From Candidatus Latescibacterota bacterium (lineage in GTDB: Bacteria; Latescibacterota; UBA2968): a stretch of DNA of 64,000 nt. The stretch spans positions 4,672,001 to 4,736,000 of the forward strand of contig OZ242320.1 in assembly GCA_965208125.1 (NCBI GenBank). Direction: 5' to 3'. The stretch's first letter is position 1, and each line of letters begins with the position of its first letter. The position numbers and the translations under genes are program-made. The notes beneath the pieces are model-generated. The model did no database searches. It had not been told where the DNA came from and worked only from the letters and a program-made list of their open reading frames with translations. Below are positions 1-40,037 of this stretch, one piece after another.

Positions 1-365
1 TTACGAGCCCGGTTGACGTTTTGGGGTTTCTGACCGATATCAAAGATCGGCGCAAAGAATATTTTGTGGCGCTTTTTCTCAATGCGCGGAATCAGGTGAT
101 TTGCCGCGAAGATGTGTCGGTTGGCTCGCTCAATGCCTCACTCGTGCATCCGCGAGAGGTGTTTGCGCCAGCTGTGGGGTCATCTGCTGCGAGTGTGATT
201 CTGGCGCATAATCATCCCAGCGGCGATGTGACACCGAGTCGAGAAGATATTGAACTCACGCGCCGCATGGTGCAGGCCGGTGAGATTATGGGGATTGAGG
301 TATTGGACCATCTGATCGTCGGTTCAGAGCGGTTCTTAAGTATGAAAGAGGCGAATGTCTTTTAG
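1..365 (+). CDS. radC: RadC/JAB-domain protein (5' truncated by window edge)
   Basis: Frame open from the window start; motifs KEYFVALFLN, GSLNASLVHPREVF, AHNHPSGDVTPSRED and VLDHLIVG are typical of the RadC MPN/JAB domain. Confidence 0.95.
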   Translation, partial: TSPVDVLGFLTDIKDRRKEYFVALFLNARNQVICREDVSVGSLNASLVHPREVFAPAVGSSAASVILAHNHPSGDVTPSREDIELTRRMVQAGEIMGIEVLDHLIVGSERFLSMKEANVF

Positions 366-373
366 GTGGTGAT

Positions 374-1183
374 ATGAGTCGGATACTAACGCTGACAACA
401 GATTTTGGCATTTCTGATGGCTATGTTGGCGCGATGAAGGGCGTGGTGCTCACCTGTGTGCCAGGTGCTCAAATTGTAGATATAACACATCAAGTATCCC
501 CTCAGGATGTTGCTGCTGGCGCTTTTGCCATGTATTGTGCGTGTCCTTTTTTTCCTGAGGGTAGCGTGCATGTTGGAGTGGTTGACCCGGGGGTGGGGAG
601 TGATCGACGGGGTATTGTCGTTGAGACAGAGCAATTTCTGTATGTTGGACCGGATAATGGCCTGTTTTCTCCTGTTTATGAGCGAGAAATGGTGCGGCGC
701 ATTGTGACGATTGAGAACACGGCATTGATGCGCCCGCAAGTGAGTCCGACTTTTCACGGACGAGATGTATTTGCTCAGGTGGGGGCGCATTTACTCAAGG
801 GGGTGTCCTGTGACGAGGTTGGGCCTGAAATTGAGGATCCAGTCACATGTGATCTGTGGGGTGTTGAAGAACGTGACGATGCACTCGTTGGGCGGGTGGT
901 GTGCGTTGACCATTTTGGCAATGCAATCTCAATGATTGCGCGGTCACACATTGATGAAAAATATCCCGATGGAGATTTTGAGATCATCATTGGCAAGACC
1001 CGATTTGATCGGATATGCCAGACATATAGTGAGGTCATAGAGGGGAAAGCGCTGGCGCTTTACGGCAGTTTGGATACGCTGGAGGTCGCGGTTTGCGAGG
1101 GCAGTGCAAGCAGGACGCTTGGTATAAAACAAGGGGATGAGATTTGTGTGTGTAGGGGTCAGGACAGGAGGGATAGGAGTTGA
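374..1183 (+). CDS. SAM hydroxide adenosyltransferase / chlorinase-fluorinase family (DUF62)
   Basis: Motifs ILTLTTDFG, VVDPGVGSDRR, GPDNGL, TFHGRDVFA and VDHFGN. Confidence 0.92.
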   Translation: MSRILTLTTDFGISDGYVGAMKGVVLTCVPGAQIVDITHQVSPQDVAAGAFAMYCACPFFPEGSVHVGVVDPGVGSDRRGIVVETEQFLYVGPDNGLFSPVYEREMVRRIVTIENTALMRPQVSPTFHGRDVFAQVGAHLLKGVSCDEVGPEIEDPVTCDLWGVEERDDALVGRVVCVDHFGNAISMIARSHIDEKYPDGDFEIIIGKTRFDRICQTYSEVIEGKALALYGSLDTLEVAVCEGSASRTLGIKQGDEICVCRGQDRRDRS

Positions 1184-1848
1184 GAAATGCGGTCTATTTC
1201 GATATCGGGATGTTCTGATGGGGTTTGGGGCTTTCTGTTTTTTTGTCGGCCGTGACGCATGCGTACGGTGGTCATACCCAGGGTTTTTGCCGTGGCGATT
1301 TCGTCGGTGAGTTTGTCGCCCACGCATAAAATTTGGACATGGGACAGAGATAGTGCTTTTGCTGCTTGCGTGAGGGATTGTGTTTTATCACTGCTTTTTC
1401 GGTCGTCTTGTAGAATGAGGGTATTGTCGCCCTCGCTAAAATAATCGCACAAGCCGAGAAGGCGAACTTTTTCGCGCTGACGATCGGGATTTCCAGAGGT
1501 GACAAGGGCGAGTTGATAGCTGCGCTGGACAAGGGTAGCGAGGGTGGAGAGTACATCGGGGAAAGGGGTGATGGCTTCCACGTTGCGGGGATTGTACGCA
1601 TTGAGTGCCCGTTCTACGATGCTGGGCGGGATATTGTACTGGGTGCCGAGTAAGCGAATGGCCTCTGAAGAGCTATGTGTTTGGGAAAGCAACACCTGTT
1701 GCTGATAACCGGTCTCAAATGAGAGGTCGGGATGTGCTGAAGCGAGGATTTGAGCGGCTCTGCGCCGCGCGGGTTGGGTGAGTTGGCCCGTGCAGTCAAA
1801 GAGGGTGTCGTCGAGGTCAAAAATAATACCTCTGATTTTTCCTGTCAT
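1159..1848 (-). CDS. HAD-superfamily hydrolase
   Basis: Motif I FDLDDT, motif II LVTSG, motif IV VGDKLTDEI; ATGA overlap with the stop of the upstream gene. Confidence 0.9.
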   Translation of the reverse strand: MTGKIRGIIFDLDDTLFDCTGQLTQPARRRAAQILASAHPDLSFETGYQQQVLLSQTHSSSEAIRLLGTQYNIPPSIVERALNAYNPRNVEAITPFPDVLSTLATLVQRSYQLALVTSGNPDRQREKVRLLGLCDYFSEGDNTLILQDDRKSSDKTQSLTQAAKALSLSHVQILCVGDKLTDEIATAKTLGMTTVRMRHGRQKNRKPQTPSEHPDIEIDRISQLLSLLS

Positions 1849-3803
1849 TCATCCAGGCCCCAATAGTCGGGCACGCTCAGGCCGCAGAAAATGCGACAGA
1901 TCGCATCGGCGACTTTGGCCGGGTCGTGGCTGATAAAATCGCCGGTGCCGCGCTCTATGGCATCGGGATGAAATTCTTCTAAAAAGTCTGCGCGGGTCCA
2001 GGGACCGAATGTGTCGAGCGTTTCTGTATCGCATTCAACCAGGACTTTGCCATCTTTTTTGTATTTTTTGATCAGTGGGTGCCAGTCCTCGCTTTTGGGT
2101 GTCTGGAAAATGCGGAGGTCCTGCACCAGCGTGTGATCCATGACGCCATTGCGCTGATTTTTGGGTAGGTGTTTGAGGATCGCTTTGAGGTGGTCAGAGG
2201 CTCTAAAATTATCGGTCTGCCCGGGTTGTGTGACGATGTTGCAAACGTAGATGGTTTTGCCCTGAGCGCGTCTGATCAGTGCTTTTTGAATATCGGGTAC
2301 GAGGAGATTGGTGATGACGCTGGTGTACAGGCTGCCCGGTCCAATGACGACGATATCTGCATCTGCAATGGCTTGCAAAGCATCGCGCGGTGCTCTGATC
2401 TGATTTTGTTCCAGGCTCACTTTGTGCCCCTGGCGCACGCGGATCTCAACCTGTCCTGTTTCGGGATCTATGACGCGCTCGAGCGCGCTGTCTTTGCGAT
2501 TGAGTTCGCGCAAGAGAGCGTCATTGGTGACGAGATATGCCCGCTCGAGAGGTGGTTTACCGGGTTTTCTGACCATCCATTCGGTATAGCGATGTTCGCC
2601 GTTTGTCAGTTTGGCGCAAATATCGACATTTTCAGTGCTGGCAGGGAAAACTGTACCCTGTACGTGCAGCATGTTGCTGGCTGTTTTTATAGCGGCATGA
2701 AAATCTCCGAGTTGCTGAGTGAGGGCAGCCACGAGAAAATTGCCAATATGGTCGTTCTTAAAAATACCGGATTCTTGCTCGCTGTTGGGAAAGCGGTGTT
2801 GGAAGACGTTGAAAAGCCCCTGAGATATCTGTTCGGGATCGGCGAGTGCTGTGAGGGCATTGCGAATGTCACCGGGGGGCTGGACTCCCAAATTCCAGCG
2901 GATACGCCCCGAGGAAGCACCGGAATCGGTCACGGCAACGACAGCTGTTGGATGACGGGTATAGGGACGCAATCCACGCAAGACAGTGGGTAGGCCAGTG
3001 CCGCCGCCGATAACGGCAACCCTGAATCGGTCGGGGGTTTTGCCGATCCGCGAGAGGTGCAATAATGTAGATAGTTGGGCAAGGTATTTGATTTCGTAGT
3101 CGGGGCGGTCGCCTATCGCGGGTGTTTCTCGGGAGAATCTTCCGCGCCGCAACCAGATTGTGGTGAGGCCCTGGCGATTACCCGCGCGAATTTCATCGTG
3201 GGTGCGGTCTCCAACGACGATGAGTTGGTCAGAAGAGAGCTTATGGCTTTCCATGAGTTCTGAAAACCAGTAAGCATGTGCAGGGGGACCTTCGTTGATT
3301 ATGCGATCAAAATAAGGAGCAATGCCCAGGCGTTCAATTTTGTTGCGCTGACGGCGCGCCCTGCCCAGCGTGACGAGAAATAGTTTATAGCCCGCCTGGC
3401 GCAATTCCAGGAGAGTATGTAAGGCGTCGGGGTAGGGGCGAATGTCTTCTACATCTTCGGCATTGTAAACGCGCTCCATTTCAGCTACAAGGGCTTCGAC
3501 TGGCTCGGCTTCCGGGTCGGTTTTTTGTTTGTCGAGAAAACGGCGTACCTGATCGGGTTTATCTTTGAAGACGGCTTTGGCGATATCAAAAAAAGCGAAA
3601 TAATAGGGCGAGGATGAATAATAAGGACCGTGTTTACGTTCGAGCGTATTGATGCGTTGGCGTGCATAGGCGCGGGTGGCAAAAAAACCGTTTGAAAACA
3701 GAAAAGCGGCAACGCGTTGACGCGCGGCATGTACGACGGGCGTCAGGTCAAATAGGGTTCCGTCGAGGTCGAATACGATTGCGCGGGCATTTTCCAGGGA
3801 CAC
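1845..3803 (-). CDS. Fusion: N-terminal HAD hydrolase + C-terminal YvcK/GlmR (CofD-like, UPF0052) domain
   Basis: FDLDGT...VGDRTHDEI (HAD), followed by VAVIGGGTGL, VTDSGASSGRIR, PPGDIRNAL, GPGSLYTSV, NIVTQPGQT and HDPAKVA (YvcK); start placed at GTG 3803 behind a GGAG RBS. Confidence 0.9.
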   Translation of the reverse strand: MSLENARAIVFDLDGTLFDLTPVVHAARQRVAAFLFSNGFFATRAYARQRINTLERKHGPYYSSSPYYFAFFDIAKAVFKDKPDQVRRFLDKQKTDPEAEPVEALVAEMERVYNAEDVEDIRPYPDALHTLLELRQAGYKLFLVTLGRARRQRNKIERLGIAPYFDRIINEGPPAHAYWFSELMESHKLSSDQLIVVGDRTHDEIRAGNRQGLTTIWLRRGRFSRETPAIGDRPDYEIKYLAQLSTLLHLSRIGKTPDRFRVAVIGGGTGLPTVLRGLRPYTRHPTAVVAVTDSGASSGRIRWNLGVQPPGDIRNALTALADPEQISQGLFNVFQHRFPNSEQESGIFKNDHIGNFLVAALTQQLGDFHAAIKTASNMLHVQGTVFPASTENVDICAKLTNGEHRYTEWMVRKPGKPPLERAYLVTNDALLRELNRKDSALERVIDPETGQVEIRVRQGHKVSLEQNQIRAPRDALQAIADADIVVIGPGSLYTSVITNLLVPDIQKALIRRAQGKTIYVCNIVTQPGQTDNFRASDHLKAILKHLPKNQRNGVMDHTLVQDLRIFQTPKSEDWHPLIKKYKKDGKVLVECDTETLDTFGPWTRADFLEEFHPDAIERGTGDFISHDPAKVADAICRIFCGLSVPDYWGLDE

Positions 3804-3904
3804 GGCACATCTCCGCGGTTGAGTTGTGGGTTCAAAGGGGAAGATAAGACTTTTTAGATTAAGAAAAAAAATAAAAGTGGGGAAGAGGAAAGATTGTGGA
3901 GATA

Positions 3905-4603
3905 ATGTGTAAAATTTGGAAGGCGGCACTCAATTTTGTTTATCCGTCGTCTTGTATGATTTGCAAGGCATCACTGCCGGATTCACCGGGGTTGTGTGAT
4001 TTGTGTTGGGATGATATGGAGATTTGGGATTCGGGATTACACGAGGTGGATTTTGAACACGAATTTGACCAAACAGTTATTTTGTATCAATTTAATGATA
4101 GTGTCCGATCTTTAATTCACGCGCTCAAATACCGGGGAAAAACACTTCCCGGACAGATATTAGGGAAAGCTCTGGGACAGCGCATTGAGGGCTTATTCGA
4201 TTCCGATACGATGATTGTCCCGGTGCCACTTCACTCAGCAAAAACAAGAGCACGAGGATATAATCAGAGTGAGATTATTGCACGGGCTACAGGACGGGCG
4301 TCGGGTTTACAAGTGCTGGCAAACGCGCTGAAAAGAGTGCGGCCAACACCTACACAGACGCAACTGGGCGTTTTGGAGCGTCAATACAATGTACAGGGAG
4401 CATTTCACGTGCGTCATCCCCCGTCTATTGAGGGGCGAAATATATTTTTGATAGACGATGTTATCACGACGGGTGCGACGCTCAATGCATGTGCGCAGGT
4501 TCTGCGATCTGCGGGGGCGCAATGCGTGTCTGTTGGTGCTGTTGCCAGTCCCTTATTGGGGGAAGATGATCTGTCTCAAGATGTAGAAAAATCGAGGTCT
4601 TGA
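3905..4603 (+). CDS. comF: ComF family phosphoribosyltransferase-like protein
   Basis: N-terminal CxxC..CxxC, LIHALKYRG, VPVPLH, RGYNQS, LIDDVITTGAT. Confidence 0.9.
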   Translation: MCKIWKAALNFVYPSSCMICKASLPDSPGLCDLCWDDMEIWDSGLHEVDFEHEFDQTVILYQFNDSVRSLIHALKYRGKTLPGQILGKALGQRIEGLFDSDTMIVPVPLHSAKTRARGYNQSEIIARATGRASGLQVLANALKRVRPTPTQTQLGVLERQYNVQGAFHVRHPPSIEGRNIFLIDDVITTGATLNACAQVLRSAGAQCVSVGAVASPLLGEDDLSQDVEKSRS

Positions 4604-4651
4604 CGCTGATTTTATCTTTTAGTGGGCGTACCTGTGATAAATACAACGGGC

Positions 4652-4680
4652 TTGACAGGTATGTTGCAATACCTTAAACT
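4652..4680 (+). promoter_or_regulatory. sigma70-type promoter of the glycolytic operon, with a palindrome in the spacer
   Basis: TTGACA-N17-TAAACT; AGGTAT-N6-ATACCT inverted repeat at 4657-4674. Confidence 0.6.
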
Positions 4681-4750
4681 TCAGGTCTTTGAAAATCTTA
4701 CAGGACTCAGGCGCTTATGCTCGTGATAGTGATTTTGTAAGGGAGATATT

Positions 4751-5791
4751 ATGTCTGTAAAACGCGTTGGCATACTTACAGGTGGTGGCGATTGTCCAGG
4801 TCTTAATGCGGTAATCCGCGCGATTGTACGCAAGGGCATTATGGTTTACAATTACGACATGACGGGTGTGCAGGAGGGATGGCGAGGGATGCTTGAAGGG
4901 CTGTCAGTGCCTCTGGATTTGAACGCTGTTTCGGGGATTTTGCCGCGCGGGGGTACAATTTTGGGATCTTCTCGGACAAATCCGTATCAAGATGGTGCAG
5001 ATGGCGGTGCGCTCGTGCGAGGGGGGATGGAGAAAATGGGCCTGGACGCACTAATTGCCATTGGTGGCGATGATACACTCGGTGTGGCCCATCAGCTCAC
5101 AGATCAGGGCATCAAAGTAGTAGGCGTGCCCAAAACCATTGATAATGATCTGGATGGCACAGACCAGACCTTTGGTTTTGATACGGCTATCAATATCGTG
5201 ATGGAAGCGATTGACCGCCTGCATACAACGGCTGAGTCTCACAACCGCGTGATGGTTGTCGAGGTTATGGGACGCCATGCGGGTTGGATTGCCGTGGAGG
5301 CTGGTATTGCAGGGGGGGCAGATGTGATTCTGATCCCGGAAGTCCCATTTGATATGGATGACGTGTGCGATACCATCAGAAAACGCCATGCCCGAGGGAA
5401 GACATTCAGTATTGTGGTGGCTGCTGAAGGTGCCAAGCTCGACGATGACAGTATGGTTTTGCAATCTCAGGAAAAAGATGCATTCGGGCATGTTCGCCTG
5501 GGGGGCATTGGCAATTTGCTGAGTGATGAAATTGAGCGGCGCACTGGATATGAAAGTCGCGCAACCGTGCTGGGCCATATTCAACGCGGGGGCAGTCCTT
5601 CTGCTTATGATCGGGTGTTGGGGACGCGATTTGGGATAGCGGCAATTGATCTGATACAAGAAGGCAATTTTGGCAAGATGGTGGCGCTGCGAGGACAAAA
5701 TATTGTTGCGATTGATTTGAAAGAGGCCGTGTCGAAGTTGCGTACGGTGGATATGGGTCTTTACGATATTGCCAAAGTATTTTTCGGATAA
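4751..5791 (+). CDS. pfkA: 6-phosphofructokinase (PfkA family, PPi-type signature)
   Basis: [48 protein letters not shown]. Confidence 0.95.
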
Positions 5792-5808
5792 TGAGTTTGG
5801 AGGAAATT

Positions 5809-6840
5809 ATGGTAGGAATGAGAGTAGGAATCAATGGATTTGGGCGGATTGGACGGCTGGTATTTCGCGCGGCTATGGCGCGTGGTCTCAATGTGGTGGC
5901 TGTAAACGATTTGACCGATGCTGCTAGTCTGGCGCATTTGCTCAAATACGATTCGACACACGGGCGGTATCCCGGGTGCGTTAATCATCTGAAAAACGGC
6001 GTACAAGTGGAGAAGTCATCGGTTGATGCGCTTGTAGTAGATGGCAAAATGGTGGCTGTTTTGTCCGAACGAGATCCGGCACAATTGCCCTGGAGGTCAT
6101 TGGGTGTGGATGTGGTGGTTGAATCGACGGGCTTTTTTACCGATAAAGAGTCCGCGAGTGCCCATTTGGGAGAAAAAGGGGCAAAAAAGGTGATTATTTC
6201 TGCGCCCGCCAAAGGAGATTTGCCCACTGTGGTGATGGGAATTAATGATGTCGTTTTACAAAAAGACGATACGGTTATTTCCAATGCTTCGTGTACGACC
6301 AACTGTCTGGCGCCTATGGTGAGTGTGTTGCACGATGCATTTGGCGTTGTACACGGGCTTATGACCACTATTCATTCTTACACAGGAGATCAACGTCTGA
6401 TCGATGCGCCCCATTCCGATATGCGCCGTGCGCGGTCTGCCGCCCTGTCGATGATTCCGACGACAACGGGCGCGGCGAGTGCAGTGGGCCTGGTTATTCC
6501 CGAACTCAATGGCAAACTCGACGGCATGGCCGTGCGCGTGCCCACGCCAGATGGTTCATTTACCGATTTTGTCGCGGTGCTGAAAAAAGAGGTGACTGCA
6601 GAAGAGGTAAACAATGCCTTTGAATGTGCAGCTTATGGGCGTTTGAAAGGTATTCTGGAATACACCGATGATCCCATTGTTTCTGCCGATATCCTGGGCA
6701 ATGCCCATTCTTGTATTTTCGATTCGATGATTACCACAGTGATGTCGGGCTATATGGTGAAGGTGTGTGGATGGTACGACAATGAGTGGGGGTATTCCAA
6801 TCGGTGCGTGGATTTGATCGCGAAGTTGGCGGAGATGTAA
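5809..6840 (+). CDS. gap: Type I glyceraldehyde-3-phosphate dehydrogenase
   Basis: [31 protein letters not shown]; GGAGG RBS before ATG 5809. Confidence 0.98.
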
Positions 6841-35506: not shown

Positions 35507-36565
35507 ATGGCAGCAGAGCTGGGTTTTGGCGTTGTTGGACTGGGTATGGGCAAGAACCACTGCCGGTCTGTCACACGGGCCAATGGCGCGAAGTTGGTGG
35601 CCGTGTGCGATGTGGATGAGGAGCGTTTGGGACCAACTGCTGAGGAATACGGGTGCAAAGCTTATACGAGTTATGAAGAGATGCTTCAGGACGATGAGGT
35701 CCAGGTCGTCAATATTTGTGTTGAATCTGGAAAGCACGCCGAACTGGGTATTCAGGCCGCAGATGCGGGCAAGCACATGATCGTTGAGAAGCCTGCGGAT
35801 ATTACGCCTGAGCGCGTTGATCAATTAATTGGTGCAGTGAAAGATGCCGGCGTAAAGGTAGGATGTATTTTTCAAGCGCGCTTGGAACCTCTAAACAGGC
35901 GGATCAAAGAAGCGGTTGATAGTGGTAAGCTGGGCAAGTTGATCGGTGTTCACGGCCATTTGCCCTGGTATCGCGCGGATAGCTATTATCAGGGCGCACA
36001 TGGATCCTGGAAGGGGACGTGGGATCTCGATGGGGGAGGCTCGCTGATGAATCAGGGCGTGCATACTGTCGATTTGATTCAGTGGCTTGCAGGCGGCGTC
36101 GAATCTGTGATGGGCATGTTCGGCGTTTTTGGACACGATATCGAAGCAGAAGATCAGACTGTGGCGTTGTTCAAATTTAAGAATGGTGCGATTGGCACGG
36201 TTTATACGACGACTTGCTGCTATCCCGGACTTCCGCAACTGGTGACTATTTACGGCGAAAATGGATCGATTATGAAAGATGCCTCAAAATTGATTTCCTG
36301 GAAAATTCAGGGCGAGAACGAGGCATCGGAAGAAGCAGAGATGCTGGGTTTTTACGGCGACCAGGAAGACAAACAGAAGAATATTTCAGCAGATCCCCTG
36401 GCCGTCAGTTCTGATGGGCACACGTTGATTATTGAAGACCTCGTCGGGGCGATCAATGAAGACCGCGAGCCTATGATTGGTCTCGAAAGCGCGCGCCATG
36501 CCGTGGAAATTATTACTGCGGTGTTTGAATCCGGACGCACGGGGCGGGAAGTTAAGGTGGGGTAG
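35507..36565 (+). CDS. Gfo/Idh/MocA family oxidoreductase
   Basis: GVVGLG, AGKHMIVEKP, DGGGSLMNQGVHTVD. Confidence 0.93.
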   Translation: MAAELGFGVVGLGMGKNHCRSVTRANGAKLVAVCDVDEERLGPTAEEYGCKAYTSYEEMLQDDEVQVVNICVESGKHAELGIQAADAGKHMIVEKPADITPERVDQLIGAVKDAGVKVGCIFQARLEPLNRRIKEAVDSGKLGKLIGVHGHLPWYRADSYYQGAHGSWKGTWDLDGGGSLMNQGVHTVDLIQWLAGGVESVMGMFGVFGHDIEAEDQTVALFKFKNGAIGTVYTTTCCYPGLPQLVTIYGENGSIMKDASKLISWKIQGENEASEEAEMLGFYGDQEDKQKNISADPLAVSSDGHTLIIEDLVGAINEDREPMIGLESARHAVEIITAVFESGRTGREVKVG

Positions 36566-36587
36566 GGGAAGTGTGAAGTGGAAAGTG

Positions 36588-36619
36588 AAAAAAGCCAGAT
36601 ATCTTGTCTGGCTTTTTTT
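36588..36619. terminator. Bidirectional Rho-independent terminator
   Basis: A6-GCCAGAT..GTCTGGC-T7 between convergent genes. Confidence 0.85.
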
Positions 36620-36625
36620 GTTTAA

Positions 36626-36985
36626 TTACAGATTGTAGCCGGGGAATGTCTCTGCCATCGCCTCTTTGTCCGTGCCTATGAATAGCCGATCATCGGTGTG
36701 TATTAGTGGACGACGTATCAGCCGGGGCTGTTCAGCCATGAGGCGAATTAGTTCATCTGGTGACACAACCTCTCGGTCGAGTTTTAGTGTTCGTGCCGAA
36801 GGACTCCGCCACGAAAATATATCGGCTGGAGAGGTGTCGCCGAGCAATTCCCAGAGTTCTTCCTCAGTGAACTCATCTTTGAAGAAATCCCTCTCCTCCA
36901 CATTGATGCCTTCTCGTGAAAGCCACGCTTTCACCTTGCGGCAGGAACTTCATCTGTTCCAGGTGTAAAAGTTGATTTTAGACAT
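36626..36985 (-). CDS. ArsC/Spx-family protein, predicted selenoprotein (UxxC; UGA at 36952-36950)
   Basis: ATG 36985 reads MSKINFYTWNR-UGA-SSCRKVKAWL; the UGA aligns with the first Cys of the family CxxC; C-terminal PRLIRRP; SECIS-like hairpin downstream. Confidence 0.85.
36907..36943 (-). promoter_or_regulatory. Putative bacterial SECIS element
   Basis: mRNA UGCC-GCAAG-GUGAAAGC-GUG-GCUUUCAC-GAGAA-GGCA; the perfect 8-bp upper stem begins after 15 nt 3' of the UGA and its loop begins with GU. Confidence 0.7.
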
Positions 36986-36996
36986 GGATACCTTTT

Positions 36997-37227
36997 TTAA
37001 GCGAACTCAAAAATCTTCAAAGGAATAGACTTTTTCGGTTTTGCCTGCCCGTGGACCATCAGACGAATCTTTTCCGCGGTTTCGCGGCTGAATGTCTCTT
37101 CGCCACAGCGGTTACATACCGTAGCCGGAATGCGGTCTATCAGGACGTATTTTCCATCGATTTGGAATATCTCTTCTACCAACTCTTCACGGCTTTCTTC
37201 AGCACCACAAATCGAACATGTAAACAT
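36997..37227 (-). CDS. YgiT-type zinc finger protein
   Basis: CSIC...IPATVCNRCGEETFS; AAGGAGG RBS. Confidence 0.85.
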   Translation of the reverse strand: MFTCSICGAEESREELVEEIFQIDGKYVLIDRIPATVCNRCGEETFSRETAEKIRLMVHGQAKPKKSIPLKIFEFA

Positions 37228-37241
37228 GCTCACCTCCTTAT

Positions 37242-39929
37242 TTACATAGAAACGCCCAGAAGTCCTCGGGTAAATTGAAAGTCTGTGTTACCTGTGAGGG
37301 GCGTTTTAGGCGTGTATTGACGAGAGGCGACGGCGATGATCTGGCGCAAGAGGGCGTCGGCGTTGTGTTTGGGTTCGGTGTTGAAGATGAGGTCAAAGTC
37401 ATCGCCGTAGGAATTGGCGACGCGCTCTTCGGCTGTTGTTTGAAGCATGGGGGTCAGGGGATGGCCCTGCAAGGGGTGATCCCCTGAGTAGGCGATGATG
37501 AGGTGTACGCCTGTGCCGCCCAATCCAGTGAGGGTTTCGACCCAGTGGTCAGTCTGGCTGTCCATGATGTGATAGCCTGGTTGGGTGGGGTTTTGCCCGT
37601 GTGCAAGAGTGGGTGCAGGTGGCGTGCTGCCCAGAACTTCGGATAGATATATGGGATGAGACAGAAAACTCGCATTGTCGGGTACAATGAGCGTGACGCC
37701 TGTGCCGATCAGGGTTTGGGATAGAATGGCGAAGGATTGCGCAGCTATATCGGAAATGGAGCCAGAAGCGTGAAGGCCGACGCTGAGTGCGGACAGGCTG
37801 GCGGGAGTGACTTCAGGGGGAAGCGTCTGCGTGAACTGGTCGAGAAAATAGGCTTCGACCTTGTCGAGAACAGCCTCGATACCGCCGTCGAGTTGCACAC
37901 TGGCCCATCCAAATGCATCGGGGCTGATCCCTCTGTCGTCCAGTGCGTGTCGAATATAGTCGTTGTGGGTCTTTTCACAGCCGTGTTCCAATAACAGGCA
38001 GGTGTGTACGAGGGGGTGGGTGAGGTAGCCGAGCATAGTGCGCGTGTAGAGGCGTTCAGTGGCTTCTCCCGATACACCGCATCCTTCGGTGTGCGGGAGG
38101 GCGACAAAGCGCGAGATGCCCTTGTCGAGTCCCAGCCCCTTTTCTGTGAGGCGTTTTGCCGCCATCAGCGCGATTTGGCCAGAACACAGGCTGGTGGGGA
38201 GAATAAGGCCCAGGCGGTCGGTTGTAAATCCATCTCGGGCGCGAATGGCTTCAAAGCTATGTTCGTCGTCGTCAAATGTCTGAATAGCGAGCGGCACGCC
38301 CTGAGGTTCTGGCCGGTTTTTGAGATCGGGCAAGTGGTCTGTTGAGGTCTGTCGCCAGGTACGCCATATCGAGACTTGTGCGTGTGCGGCTTTTTCGCCT
38401 TTGCTGCGTTCTCCTGAGGCGATTTTGCAGGTCAGGTCAAACATATCGCTGCCGAGGTCGTCCATGGAGATGCCGTCCAGATATGCACCCGCGTTGACAT
38501 CCATATCTTTACTGAGTAGATGATAGCGTTCGGATGTGGTGACGATCTTGATGGTGGGTACAAAGGGGAAGTTTGTGATTGAGCCATTGCCGGTGATGAA
38601 GAAGATCATATTACATCCGGAAGCTACTTGTCCGGCAATACTTTCGAGATCATTGCCAGGGCTGTCCATGAAATAGTATCCCGGATCGGTCATCGGTGCC
38701 GCGTAATCAATGACAGAATCGAGACGGACATCCGGGTGGCGTTTCATGGCTGCGCCGATGGATTTGAGGACGATGTTGTAGAGGCCGCGGAACTTGTTGC
38801 CCCCGGAAGGGTTGCCCTCTGCTGTTGTGCCGTGCCATGCAGCGAGGGTTTTATAGGCTTCCACTTTGTCGAGAAAGCACTGGGCGACATCGTAAGATGA
38901 GACATTTTGAAGAACGTAGGATTCCGCGCCGATGAGTTCGTCGGTTTCTGCGAGGTTGGCTGAGCCTCCGTGGCGAATGATTTCTCTTGCCACCCACGAC
39001 GCCAATGGATTGCCGGAGATGCCCGAGAATGCGTCTGATCCGCCGCATTGCAGCGCGATTTTGATGTGAGATAGGGGTTCGGGCGTGCGGACCATTGCCT
39101 GGACTTGGGGCAACCATTTGGCAATGATGTTTTCACCCTGTTTTAGCGCGTTTTCAAAGCTGCCTTCAAGTGTGAGAAAGTGGTGCAGAACATGGTCGAT
39201 AGGATAGTTGTTTTGCACGAAAAATTCCCGAAGATGCTGGTTGGTGATGGCTTCGTGACCGTAGTCGATCGCGAGTACCGCACCGACGTTTGGATGTACT
39301 GCAAATCCGGCGAGTGTACGCAATAAGAGGTCTTTGTTATTGGGGATTTCAGTGCCGCCGCCTTCGGTATGGGCAACTGCAACAATGCCATCAATATTGT
39401 AATAATCTCGTATGCAATCTTTTAATCGCGCTTCGAGCTGTTTGGCATAACTCGCTGTGCGGGAGGATGTTCCCAGTATGACAATATTATTTCGCGTGCC
39501 TACGCCTCGACCTCCCGATCTTCTGAAACCCTGAAAAGTACCGCACTGATCATAGCGCTTGACTTGTTCACCTGCTTCAAAAGAGGTGATCTGGTATGGA
39601 ACAATGCGATCTTCAAAGTTGGGCACGTCTGGAAGCTCGAAGTCGAGATCGCGGAGTTTGAGGGCGTCGAGGATCTCGGAGTTGCAGGCGTAATCTCCGG
39701 GAGAGATATGGCGCGTTGCAATGCCAAAGGGCAGGCCCCACGAGAGGAGAGGTTCGCCAGGGGCGATGGGTTGGATGGCAAAGCGATGGCCTTCGAGGAT
39801 GGTATGCCGAAGCGCGAAGGTGCGATCTGAATGGATAATCTGGGTGCCTCTTTCCAGTTTTCGGGTCGCAATGCCAACATTGTCTCCCGGAAGAGGGAGA
39901 CGACCGATTTCAGAAAAATTATGTGTCAT
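37242..39929 (-). CDS. Long UxaA/GarD-family sugar-acid dehydratase (SAF + catalytic domain + second partial copy)
   Basis: DNVGIA, GH.FA, GVGTRN, HTEGGG, QCGGSDAFSG, GNPSGGN, KSIGA, TGNGS; a second HTEGCG/EHGCEK unit in the C-terminal third. Confidence 0.85.
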   Translation of the reverse strand: MTHNFSEIGRLPLPGDNVGIATRKLERGTQIIHSDRTFALRHTILEGHRFAIQPIAPGEPLLSWGLPFGIATRHISPGDYACNSEILDALKLRDLDFELPDVPNFEDRIVPYQITSFEAGEQVKRYDQCGTFQGFRRSGGRGVGTRNNIVILGTSSRTASYAKQLEARLKDCIRDYYNIDGIVAVAHTEGGGTEIPNNKDLLLRTLAGFAVHPNVGAVLAIDYGHEAITNQHLREFFVQNNYPIDHVLHHFLTLEGSFENALKQGENIIAKWLPQVQAMVRTPEPLSHIKIALQCGGSDAFSGISGNPLASWVAREIIRHGGSANLAETDELIGAESYVLQNVSSYDVAQCFLDKVEAYKTLAAWHGTTAEGNPSGGNKFRGLYNIVLKSIGAAMKRHPDVRLDSVIDYAAPMTDPGYYFMDSPGNDLESIAGQVASGCNMIFFITGNGSITNFPFVPTIKIVTTSERYHLLSKDMDVNAGAYLDGISMDDLGSDMFDLTCKIASGERSKGEKAAHAQVSIWRTWRQTSTDHLPDLKNRPEPQGVPLAIQTFDDDEHSFEAIRARDGFTTDRLGLILPTSLCSGQIALMAAKRLTEKGLGLDKGISRFVALPHTEGCGVSGEATERLYTRTMLGYLTHPLVHTCLLLEHGCEKTHNDYIRHALDDRGISPDAFGWASVQLDGGIEAVLDKVEAYFLDQFTQTLPPEVTPASLSALSVGLHASGSISDIAAQSFAILSQTLIGTGVTLIVPDNASFLSHPIYLSEVLGSTPPAPTLAHGQNPTQPGYHIMDSQTDHWVETLTGLGGTGVHLIIAYSGDHPLQGHPLTPMLQTTAEERVANSYGDDFDLIFNTEPKHNADALLRQIIAVASRQYTPKTPLTGNTDFQFTRGLLGVSM

Positions 39930-39959
39930 GGATTGCATTCCTTTGAAAGTTTGTTTACA

Positions 39960-39988
39960 GTTATACGGAAAAGAAAAAACGATGTCAA
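39960..39988 (-). promoter_or_regulatory. sigma70-type promoter for the uxaA-like operon
   Basis: Minus strand TTGACA-N17-TATAAC. Confidence 0.65.
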
Positions 39989-40007
39989 GTTTCATATAAA
40001 AAAGACC

Positions 40008-40037
40008 TTGACATATCACTTACATTTGGTTTATGTT
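40008..40037 (+). promoter_or_regulatory. sigma70-type promoter for dtxR-feoAB (divergent from the above)
   Basis: TTGACA-N18-TATGTT. Confidence 0.45.

Follow-up and report, generated by a model that had tools for sequence, protein, structure and literature searches.

A short gene in the analysed window (64,000 nt of genomic DNA from a Candidatus Latescibacterota bacterium) contains an in-frame TGA that, as judged by comparison of related sequences, is almost certainly read as selenocysteine (Sec) with the aid of a conserved RNA hairpin. Our reading as a whole, which we regard as very likely, is that of a gene for an ArsC/Spx-family protein of 119 residues in which UGA codon 12 is recoded via SelB and the hairpin, the product most likely being an oxidoreductase; the oxidoreductase role taken by itself, on the premise that the protein is a selenoprotein, is probable by analogy. 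In the proposed mechanism, the hairpin, lying within the coding sequence 15 nt downstream of codon 12, would recruit SelB and tRNA-Sec, recoding of UGA to Sec would yield the full-length product with a thioredoxin fold, and its U12-x-x-C15 centre would cycle between the selenol/thiol and selenenylsulfide states. The protein would most likely act as a small selenol/thiol oxidoreductase rather than as a regulator of Spx type that binds RNA polymerase or an arsenate reductase coupled to glutaredoxin. The gene is a further member of a selenoprotein type that has already been catalogued, and the result is a correction of its annotation, not a discovery.

The mechanical open reading frame (ORF) call starts the gene at GTG 36934 and yields a product of 102 aa, which, as an earlier note on this DNA had pointed out, removes the redox motif. 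The frame opened by ATG 36985, with TGA read as U, gives MSKINFYTWNRUSSCRKVKAWL... and extends over 119 residues to a TAA at 36626-36628, with C15, the second residue of the U-x-x-C motif, encoded at 36943-36941. The start codon, the AAAAGG, the translation MSKINFYTWNR*SSCRKVKAWL and the 11-bp gap to the upstream stop that the earlier note described are all present in the sequence; the TAA of the upstream ORF occupies 36997-36999, and ATG 36985 begins 11 nt past it. In most orthologues, GGAG or AGGAG precedes the equivalent ATG, 5' of the TGA. On the 3' side of the gene, the likely terminator has on its other side a run of A that may act for the Gfo/Idh/MocA gene, which is convergent. When 36500-37100 was scanned against Rfam, there were weak sub-threshold matches to terminator-bearing families at 36585-36670, while a consensus promoter/terminator scan returned no promoter for the selenoprotein gene and did not list this terminator, which was recognised by eye. 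The coordinates of all features are collected in Table 1.

Table 1. Features of the selenoprotein gene and its immediate surroundings (positions within the window)
Feature	Position	Strand	Description and basis
Selenoprotein CDS	36985..36626	-	119 codons + TAA; ArsC/Spx fold; based on sequence, Pfam PF03960, TIGR01617 and AF2 model
Shine-Dalgarno-like sequence	36991..36996	-	AAAAGG, purine-rich, 5 nt 5' of ATG 36985; read directly
UGA codon 12, predicted Sec	36950..36952	-	First residue of the U-x-x-C (U-S-S-C) redox motif; based on TGA conservation
SECIS upper hairpin	36916..36934	-	8-bp stem GUGAAAGC/GCUUUCAC, loop GUG; begins 15 nt past the UGA
Whole predicted SECIS element	36907..36943	-	Includes lower UGCC/GGCA helix (36943-36940 + 36910-36907)
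Likely intrinsic terminator	36588..36613	-	3' of the stop codon; AGCCAGA-loop-TCTGGCT, then T run; read directly
YgiT-type zinc-finger ORF	36997..37233	-	78 aa; upstream; TIGR03831 43.1 bits vs cut-off 20.2

The TGA at codon 12 is conserved far beyond this genome. It is present in 18 of 20 genomes of the same genus (protein identity of 72-90%) and in 46 of the 47 loci from Latescibacterota and Chloroflexota, where identity falls to about 40%, and the residues 5' of it (FYTWxR) are conserved among relatives as well. The sole Cys-form locus among the 47 (L095) carries TGC, and the hairpin is absent at that place. Loss of the Sec machinery does not account for the Cys form: selB scored above the cut-off in all five genomes tested, the Cys-form genome among them. 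The earlier note had placed the UGA at the first Cys of a CxxC motif and had proposed a search for homologues with either Cys or a conserved TGA at this codon; both kinds were found. Of the 150 best-ranked family representatives, 73 are complete and carry CxxC, with Cys in the codon-12 column, and 72 have no N-terminus (69 without both redox positions and 3 starting between them). Two representatives show W in place of Sec, which seems to stem from gene calling with TGA taken as Trp. Cys/Sec pairs exist within the protein family. TGA also serves as an ordinary stop here, ending 14 of the 37 open frames of at least 300 codons in the window. Two sets of candidate relatives were rejected, namely, the "TGA" matches of order-level relatives, which are ordinary Cys ArsC genes (YHNPRCSKSR) with the TGA upstream of the gene and not at the active site, and three Neisseria loci, which are ordinary Cys ArsC/YffB-like genes of 27-28% identity.

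The perfect 8-bp stem with its GUG loop, which the earlier note had placed 15 nt after the UGA, was confirmed both by folding and by comparison across relatives. RNAfold reproduces exactly this stem together with the lower helix (-22.7 kcal/mol, z = -2.46), and 2 of 200 shuffled sequences fold equally well. The folding energy of a single sequence gives only modest support, and the strength of the case lies in the comparison, since TGA and hairpin are kept together in all but one of the 47 related loci. In the upper stem, 90.5% of the cells are paired across 46 distinct sequences, against just 33-56% at slid control positions, and four of the eight pairs have changed on both sides (UA/CG 24/14, GC/AU 32/8, GC/AU 25/20, and CG/AU 26/3). 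The covariation score of the hairpin is 0.324 versus 0.229 in shuffles, none of 500 of which reaches the observed value, and the apical-loop G (alignment column 27) is invariant (46/46 sequences). Within the genus, eight of nine degenerate codons under the hairpin are free of synonymous variation, a state shared by 15 of the 82 outside it (Fisher test, p = 4e-5, a value overstated by the relatedness of the sequences). The lower UGCC/GGCA helix, also claimed by the earlier note, is present in the RNAfold structure, but its comparative support is weak: 83.2% of its cells are paired and only one of its four pairs has changed on both sides, which leaves it a weakly supported part of the putative SECIS. 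Used alone, RNAalifold recovered five of the eight pairs in the upper stem and missed the lower helix altogether, and the Rfam scan of the region matched the hairpin to no family. Paired changes in the hairpin often coincide with amino acid changes (KVKAWL, KARELL, and KVRELL), and the constraints on protein and RNA are entangled.

The machinery for Sec insertion, for which the earlier note had suggested a search, is encoded in the same genome. A profile search found selA (578 bits) and selB (396 bits) next to each other and selD (365 bits), all over curated cut-offs, and ARAGORN found a tRNA-Sec with anticodon UCA (tca) adjoining selD. The selD gene has one in-frame TGA of its own, with a hairpin of like geometry 14 nt past this UGA and a 3-nt loop, GGU. 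The proposal of a 119-aa selenoprotein decoded by means of a SECIS is strongly supported by several lines of evidence: (i) the presence of the Sec machinery; (ii) the retention of TGA in 46/47 loci; (iii) the covariation in the stem; (iv) the suppression of synonymous change; and (v) the Cys locus, which has no hairpin.

The protein matches the Pfam ArsC family (PF03960) with 65.7 bits against a gathering threshold of 24 (E = 4.9e-18). Its best NCBIfam model is TIGR01617 (Spx/MgsR, arsC_related subfamily), reached with 80.4 bits by a narrow margin over the cut-off of 75.05 and matched by all 43 family members (E <= 1e-5). The AF2 model of the selenoprotein has a pLDDT of 90.6; the top Foldseek matches are Spx chains (3gfk_A, E = 2.5e-10, TM 0.81), followed by ArsC-like proteins, and the closest PDB sequence match is likewise Spx (2e-15). 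The family also has invariant motifs of its own, EERDFF, SPS, and RRP. By sequence, the protein is neither a canonical Spx nor a canonical ArsC: Spx G52 is deleted, the alpha C-terminal domain (CTD) of the host RNA polymerase has Ala at the place of Y263, and the equivalog cut-offs for Spx and ArsC are all missed.

Selenoproteins of this kind have been listed before. The earlier note had considered a Sec-switched regulator of Spx type notable; its novelty does not stand beside the GOS table of 2008, which lists a UxxC selenoprotein family, "Arsenate reductase 2", assigned to cd03032 (Zhang & Gladyshev, PMC2398784), cd03032 being given as ArsC_Spx in PMC8755942. According to that table, "Arsenate reductase 2" has, like the window protein, a thioredoxin fold of the ArsC/Spx subfamily, Sec as the first residue of UxxC and common Cys homologues; its source is marine metagenomes and its prediction purely bioinformatic, whereas the window clade comes from metagenome-assembled genomes (MAGs) of Latescibacterota and Dehalococcoidia, the comparison being one of table description and motif. 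Membership of the window protein in this group would agree with its best matches in NCBIfam and PDB, which are Spx-like. A second group, NF041106, named "ArsC family (seleno)protein" and appearing in a 2026 review as "Arsenate reductase-like protein, UxxC" (PMC13188914), shares the ArsC-family fold and the UxxC selenocysteine motif, but the window protein scores only 35.8 bits against its cut-off of 85 and the best E value among the 43 members is 1.6e-9; the window protein therefore represents a different subfamily, outside this NCBI selenoprotein-aware model. The same review describes the functions of such predicted selenoproteins as largely uncharacterised.

Of the two roles put forward in the earlier note, a Sec-containing ArsC-like oxidoreductase and an Spx-like regulator, neither held in its canonical form, given the missed cut-offs, the gap over D51-G52 and an alpha CTD without Y263. 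A Sec-dependent arsenate reductase of the ArsC type that is coupled to glutaredoxin is unlikely, even though the protein belongs to the Pfam ArsC family, its U12 falls on the catalytic residue of ArsC, Cys12, in the alignment, both R60 and R92 are present, and the fold search returns ArsC structures (e.g., 1i9d, TM 0.78). There is also a precedent in the ArsC-type selenoprotein with a UxxS motif, reported from the Sargasso Sea as an "arsenate reductase" of TIGR00014 type (PMC1088965) and found by us in a sister species (MSKITIYHNSNUSKS...), which shares with the window protein the ArsC family and the Sec at the position of Cys12. This UxxS form, however, has a single catalytic residue and only about 28% identity to the window protein, in whose family the second Cys of UxxC is invariant; a search of the window's own genome with the window protein as query did not find it. 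Further evidence against an arsenate reductase comes from the ArsC equivalog TIGR00014, which requires 106.05 bits and for which the protein scores 41.2, from position 60, which is N in several members and absent from the conserved columns, and from the neighbourhood, where none of the nine proteins scanned is an arsenic-resistance protein, nine being a small number that makes this a weak point.

A second alternative is a Sec-switched regulator of Spx type, in which oxidation of U12-C15 would lead to binding of the RNA polymerase alpha CTD and redirect transcription. Several observations speak for it: TIGR01617, matched by every family member, is titled "Spx/MgsR family RNA polymerase-binding regulatory protein"; Spx is the top match by both PDB sequence and fold; UxxC occupies the position of the Spx redox switch, C10-x-x-C13; and Spx residues R60, R91, R92, and P93 are kept. 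At the site of the Spx RPI motif, the window protein reads R92-P93-L94. The resemblance to Bacillus subtilis Spx (PDB 1z3e, 3gfk, and 7f75) extends to the fold (TM about 0.8, 31% identity) and to the position of the redox pair, apart from Sec in place of Cys10. We consider this regulator improbable. G52 is required for alpha-CTD binding (PMC2801614 and PMC8501982), and the HMMER alignment leaves a gap over D51-G52 in the window protein. Among the eight alpha-CTD contacts given in PMC8501982 (L46, G52, V71, M74, L76, Q77, L79, and Y80), identity is confined to L46 and L79, the other six being R71, V74, P76, D77, I80, and the deleted G52, and the DNA-contacting K62 of Spx is replaced by a Pro that is invariant in the window protein's family. 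On the polymerase side, V260, R261, Y263, and N264 are named for Spx-binding enzymes (PMC8501982), and the host RpoA reads ...LSVRSANCLK..., i.e., V-R-S-A-N, in which the neighbours V260, R261, and N264 would place Ala at position 263, unlike the partner polymerase of B. subtilis Spx. The Spx/SpxA models are missed widely (72.5/123, 60/152, and 59.2/159 bits), and the C-terminus is shorter, alignments of the 119-aa protein to Spx chains of 131-132 aa stopping near Spx residue 112. A rapidly built tree separates four Spx-like representatives, which had been picked and set as the outgroup by the analyst, from the other 61 rows (SH-aLRT 98).

The genomic context bears on one more alternative to the oxidoreductase. 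In 19 loci of Chloroflexota (Dehalococcoidia), the selenoprotein gene lies between mutS and mutL, with a MutS of 938 aa upstream, and this conserved position is the reason to consider a redox partner of DNA mismatch repair; either this role or that of an Spx-like modulator acting via a different RNA polymerase surface would make the product a Sec-based redox sensor of other macromolecules, which again seems improbable. In Latescibacterota, the upstream gene encodes a UxaA/GarD-like protein (dehydratase) of 925 aa, which is unrelated to the MutS gene, and no neighbourhood shared across the phyla was found. A large "cluster" of neighbour proteins was rejected as antisense ORFs. A further point belonging to the redox-sensor reading is that the gene, SECIS included, seems to have moved between Dehalococcoidia and one genus of Latescibacterota.

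That the TGA is a real stop, owing to a recent nonsense mutation or sequencing error or with translation ending after 11 codons and a functional 102-aa product made from GTG 36934, is exceedingly improbable. That GTG is a possible start codon and gene callers do yield such products, but (i) the TGA is retained across two phyla, (ii) its eleven preceding codons show conservation at the protein level and a ribosome binding site precedes the upstream ATG, (iii) the 102-aa product would be without strand beta-1 and both redox residues, (iv) the hairpin stem opens with the three bases of GTG 36934, and (v) the TGA is covered by contigs from further public runs and none is listed as differing there, a weak point in that 109 differences were not displayed.

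The practical value of the selenoprotein reading lies in annotation. As the earlier note had predicted for standard pipelines, public protein sets hold this gene, like the rest of its clade, as N-terminally truncated products without an active site: the best 120 database relatives are all 89-102 aa long, with titles that include "hypothetical protein" and "regulatory protein spx". A well-supported Sec/Cys family is thereby added to Latescibacterota and Dehalococcoidia, and the invariant EERDFF, SPS, and RRP motifs provide a defined target for the first biochemistry of UxxC ArsC/Spx-like selenoproteins.

Public sequence runs contribute several minor observations. RNA contigs from one metatranscriptome run, one of them spanning 36795-36962, come from relatives that are mostly less than 90% alike; DNA can occur in metatranscriptome libraries, and contigs of relatives do not show transcription of the window gene. 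Small shares of the stretch are found in sponge, coral, and marine metagenomes, which we do not take as naming a habitat. Contigs from two public runs (X1 and X2) connect 36990 directly with 37238, skipping the YgiT-type ORF, which is a variable insertion and no part of the selenoprotein system.

The ArsC/Spx-like gene is a real, well-supported selenoprotein gene, which standard annotation truncates. When its TGA is taken as U (selenocysteine, Sec), the product begins MSKINFYTWNRUSSCRKVKAWL..., and direct reading places the UGA at the first position of UxxC in a 119-codon frame, as the earlier note had proposed. In the mechanical ORF list the start is GTG 36934, whose three bases open the hairpin stem, and the resulting 102-aa product has lost the redox motif; the ATG at 36985, which follows the upstream ORF's stop codon by 11 nt and has AAAAGG before it, is likewise present as described. 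TGA elsewhere in the window is an ordinary stop, ending 14 of 37 stop-to-stop frames of at least 300 codons. The expected truncation recurs in the databases, where the best 120 matches in a set of 5.8 billion proteins are 89 to 102 aa long with 74 to 86% query coverage, which indicates calls truncated after the TGA; only a few are named, as "hypothetical protein," "arsenate reductase-like glutaredoxin family protein," or "regulatory protein spx."

Coordinates of the selenoprotein gene, its neighbors, and related loci
Feature	Position	Strand	Basis or remark
Selenoprotein gene, ATG to TAA	36985..36626	-	Direct reading; 119 residues with TGA as U
TGA, codon 12 of the selenoprotein gene	36952-36950	-	Direct reading
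YgiT/MqsA-type zinc-finger ORF, 78 aa, upstream	36997-37233		TIGR03831, 43.1 bits
UxaA/GarD-like dehydratase, 925 aa, upstream	37242-40019	-	Pfam
Gfo/Idh/MocA oxidoreductase, convergent with the selenoprotein gene	35507-36565
selD selenoprotein gene	G000:C1:1005361-1006482 (window's own genome; loci L014, L017)		TGA context ..SCGG U ASKL..
mutS-linked loci L073, L075-L078, L080-L085, L088, L091, L093, L096, L098-L101	about 100-5900 in each

The 5.75-Mb, single-contig genome of the window carries the Sec machinery whose presence the earlier note had proposed to check: selB (396 bits) adjoins selA (578 bits), and a tRNA-Sec with anticodon UCA adjoins selD (365 bits), which has one in-frame TGA of its own. 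A whole-genome search of 40 relatives (20 of the same genus, 4 from other genera of the family, and 16 from the sister family) found an orthologue in 18 of the 20 same-genus genomes at 72 to 90% identity, every one carrying a single TGA, at this codon, within FYTWxRUS[ST]CRKVKAWL; among the same-genus genomes, G001 gave no match and G012 only a weak paralogue match without an orthologue. The 4 other-genus and 16 sister-family genomes gave only distant, normal-Cys ArsC genes (E >= 1.5e-9, 25 to 34% identity); any TGA counted in these matches lies upstream of the gene and was rejected as a Sec codon. A wider scan, with one genome for each species, gave 50 loci, from 13 Latescibacterota MAGs, 34 Dehalococcoidia/Chloroflexota MAGs (40 to 68% identity), and 3 Neisseria, the last being discarded as ordinary Cys proteins (27 to 28% identity). 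TGA occupies the U position in 46 of the 47 Latescibacterota and Chloroflexota loci and TGC in one (L095), a GGAG-type ribosome-binding site precedes the pre-TGA ATG in most loci, and selB scored above cut-off in five of five Chloroflexota genomes tested, the Cys-form genome included.

Contigs from four public runs, compared over 36400-37300, cover the TGA in all four, with no difference there among the differences listed (109 others fall outside the list). A single metatranscriptome contig reaches from 36795 to 36962; contigs of the RNA library come from relatives, most of them less than 90% alike, and such libraries can contain DNA. In two runs (X1 and X2), contigs pass from 36990 to 37238 by way of 16 different letters (X1 depth, 185 versus 3), so that the zinc-finger ORF is absent there; its segment measures 247 bp, and most orthologous loci also lack it. 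The stretch is a variable insertion between the dehydratase and selenoprotein genes, and it puts AAAAGG in place of the GGAG-type ribosome-binding site.

RNAfold gives the hairpin as the earlier note drew it, GUGAAAGC-GUG-GCUUUCAC 15 nt past the UGA and within a lower helix UGCC/GGCA, at -22.7 kcal/mol (z = -2.46; 2 of 200 shuffles as stable), a fold statistic which, coming from one sequence, is only modest. We aligned 46 distinct 54-nt segments from the TGA on (L025, L041-L043, and L055-L101, without duplicates and without the Cys locus L095) and scored pairing on the previously proposed structure. In the upper helix 90.5% of cells are paired, four of the eight pairs have two-sided changes (UA/CG 24/14, GC/AU 32/8, GC/AU 25/20, and CG/AU 26/3), and the covariation score of 0.324, versus 0.229 in shuffles, was reached by 0 of 500; as a control, sliding the 3' partners by 1 to 3 columns lowered pairing to 33 to 56%. 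The lower helix is poorly supported (83.2% paired, two-sided change in one pair), and RNAalifold alone recovered five upper pairs. The first loop base, a G at a synonymous third codon position (column 27), is invariant (46/46); for bacterial SECIS elements, a figure legend in PMC1088965 stresses a conserved G in the apical loop. The hairpin is further supported by several observations: (i) it is missing from the corresponding place in the Cys locus L095; (ii) within the genus (19 sequences), synonymous variation is absent from 8 of the 9 degenerate codons that the hairpin covers (residues 16 to 25), versus 15 of 82 elsewhere, with a Fisher p of 4e-5 that is overstated because the 19 sequences are kin; and (iii) the selD hairpin of the same genome, 14 nt past its UGA with a 6-bp stem and loop GGU, is alike in geometry. 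Many paired changes coincide with amino-acid changes (KVKAWL, KARELL, KVRELL), which makes it hard to separate constraint on the RNA from constraint on the protein. The hairpin has no match in Rfam.

Searched with a profile, a set of 1.84 billion representatives yielded 3735 matches at E <= 0.001, of which 583 reach 1e-10 or lower and 13 reach 1e-30 or lower. Of the top 150, 73 span the full length and have CxxC, 69 have neither position, 3 start between the two, W stands at the Sec position in 2, and the remaining 3 show other combinations; the Cys forms beside forms without the N-terminus point to a mix of Cys and presumed Sec forms, the pattern of real selenoprotein families. The two with Trp (P0122 and P0267) look like TGA=Trp-code gene calls on organisms which probably read TGA as Sec. 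The family alignment A2 holds 43 of 50 distinct proteins (L058, L059, L076, L077, L096, L099, and L101 were omitted as near-duplicates or for uncertain starts), with Y7, W9, U12, C15, L22, E31-R32-D33-F34-F35, E43, L47, F57, S61-P62-S63, M83, P87, L89, R92, and P93 invariant. A quick tree combined these 43 rows with 22 Cys representatives chosen from the best 150, using as an outgroup of our choice four representatives resembling firmicute Spx; since columns are few, many forks are unresolved. The Latescibacterota rows cluster together (SH-aLRT 93) and then with three Dehalococcoidia rows (89), within a Chloroflexota-dominated clade (96), and the SECIS stems of L068-L070 are almost identical to that of the window, GUGAAAGC-GUC-GCUUUCAC. 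Together with the absence from the family's other searched genera, this suggests that the gene moved between phyla along with its SECIS.

Pfam places the protein in the ArsC family (PF03960, 4.9e-18); glutaredoxin matches less well. The best NCBIfam model is TIGR01617, "Spx/MgsR family" (80.4 bits, slightly above the cut-off of 75.05), and three Spx models (72.5/123, 60/152, and 59.2/159 bits), the arsenate reductase model TIGR00014 (41.2/106.05 bits), and the selenoprotein-aware NF041106 (35.8/85 bits) remain below theirs. All 43 aligned members match TIGR01617; the best NF041106 E-value among them is 1.6e-9, and this clade is missed by that model. The AF2 model from A2 (pLDDT 90.6) retrieves Spx chains first in Foldseek (3gfk_A, 2.5e-10, TM 0.81, 31% identity), then ArsC-like proteins and R773 ArsC, and the PDB sequence search agrees (Spx, 2e-15; putative arsenate reductases, ~1e-8). 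The earlier suggestion of a Sec ArsC-like reductase or an Spx-like regulator therefore stands as to fold and family and falls as to the canonical forms, their model cut-offs being missed and most of the Spx interface residues not kept: the protein is not a canonical Spx or a canonical ArsC.

On our analysis, a small selenol/thiol oxidoreductase is the most probable function, in whose cycle a U12-C15 selenenylsulfide would serve as intermediate. An arsenate reductase ranks below it and is very unlikely, given the missed equivalog cut-off of TIGR00014, the invariant second Cys (UxxC, versus the single-residue UxxS form), the Asn at position 60 in several members, and the lack of any arsenic-resistance gene among nine neighbor proteins scanned. 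An Spx-type regulator is about equally unlikely, although TIGR01617 is the best model and Spx chains lead both PDB searches, since, besides the missed Spx cut-offs, (i) the HMMER alignment has a two-residue gap at Spx D51-G52, and G52 with alpha-CTD Y263 makes the essential interface; (ii) of the contact residues, L46 and L79 alone are shared, with R71, V74, P76, D77, and I80 at the further positions, where the Spx hydrophobic patch is L46, G52, V71, M74, L76, and L79, and Q77 and Y80 hydrogen-bond; (iii) the position of Spx K62, which goes into the DNA major groove, is the invariant P62 (PMC2801614 and PMC8501982 for the Spx residues); (iv) the genome's own RpoA reads L-S-V-R-S-A-N-C-L-K, which would put Ala at the Y263 position because the R261 and N264 named in the paper flank it; and (v) the four Spx-like outgroup rows stand apart from the other 61 (SH-aLRT 98).

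The dehydratase lies upstream in all 13 Latescibacterota loci, and a SRAP gene follows beyond the Gfo/Idh/MocA oxidoreductase gene in the window. The dehydratase is unusually long: GD_AH_second and GD_AH_C match in two stretches each, the best Pfam stretches end at residue 555, and the C-terminal ~370 residues may be a second, degenerate copy; against galactarate dehydratase TIGR03248 it scores 190.9 bits, short of the cut-off of 730.85. In Chloroflexota, the selenoprotein gene directly follows mutS on the same strand in 19 of 34 loci, with mutL downstream in 18, and a conserved ORF of 147 to 172 aa (weak HAD-like N-terminus, no Pfam family) lies between it and mutL. We know of no explanation for a redox selenoprotein within a mismatch-repair cluster. 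No neighbor gene is common to the Latescibacterota and Chloroflexota loci.

Related selenoproteins are on record: an "arsenate reductase" with UxxS in the Sargasso Sea study (14 sequences; PMC1088965), "ArsC-like" ones in Desulfotalea and Desulfuromonas in a 2006 genome survey (PMC1794560), and, in a table of the GOS study, "Arsenate reductase 2, cd03032, UxxC" accompanied by the numbers 42, 21, and 238 (PMC2398784), which we read as Sec sequences, samples, and Cys homologues; cd03032 is ArsC_Spx (PMC8755942). Judging from that table, UxxC ArsC/Spx-like selenoproteins are already catalogued, and the novelty suggested in the earlier note is not upheld. The literature searched contained no discussion of an Spx-type role for them, which is not proof of absence; functions of such predicted selenoproteins are described as largely uncharacterised (PMC13188914). 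BSepDB lists Dehalococcoidia bacterium UBA1141, the source of L096, among the selenoprotein-richest bacteria, with 49 (PMC13326102). With the window protein as query, the UxxS type was not found in the window's genome; weak second matches occur in 10 of the 20 same-genus genomes, and the one copy read, in a sister species (G008, L106 173-523, + strand), encodes a further selenoprotein of the ArsC family, with the classic UxxS motif (MSKITIYHNSNUSKS...).
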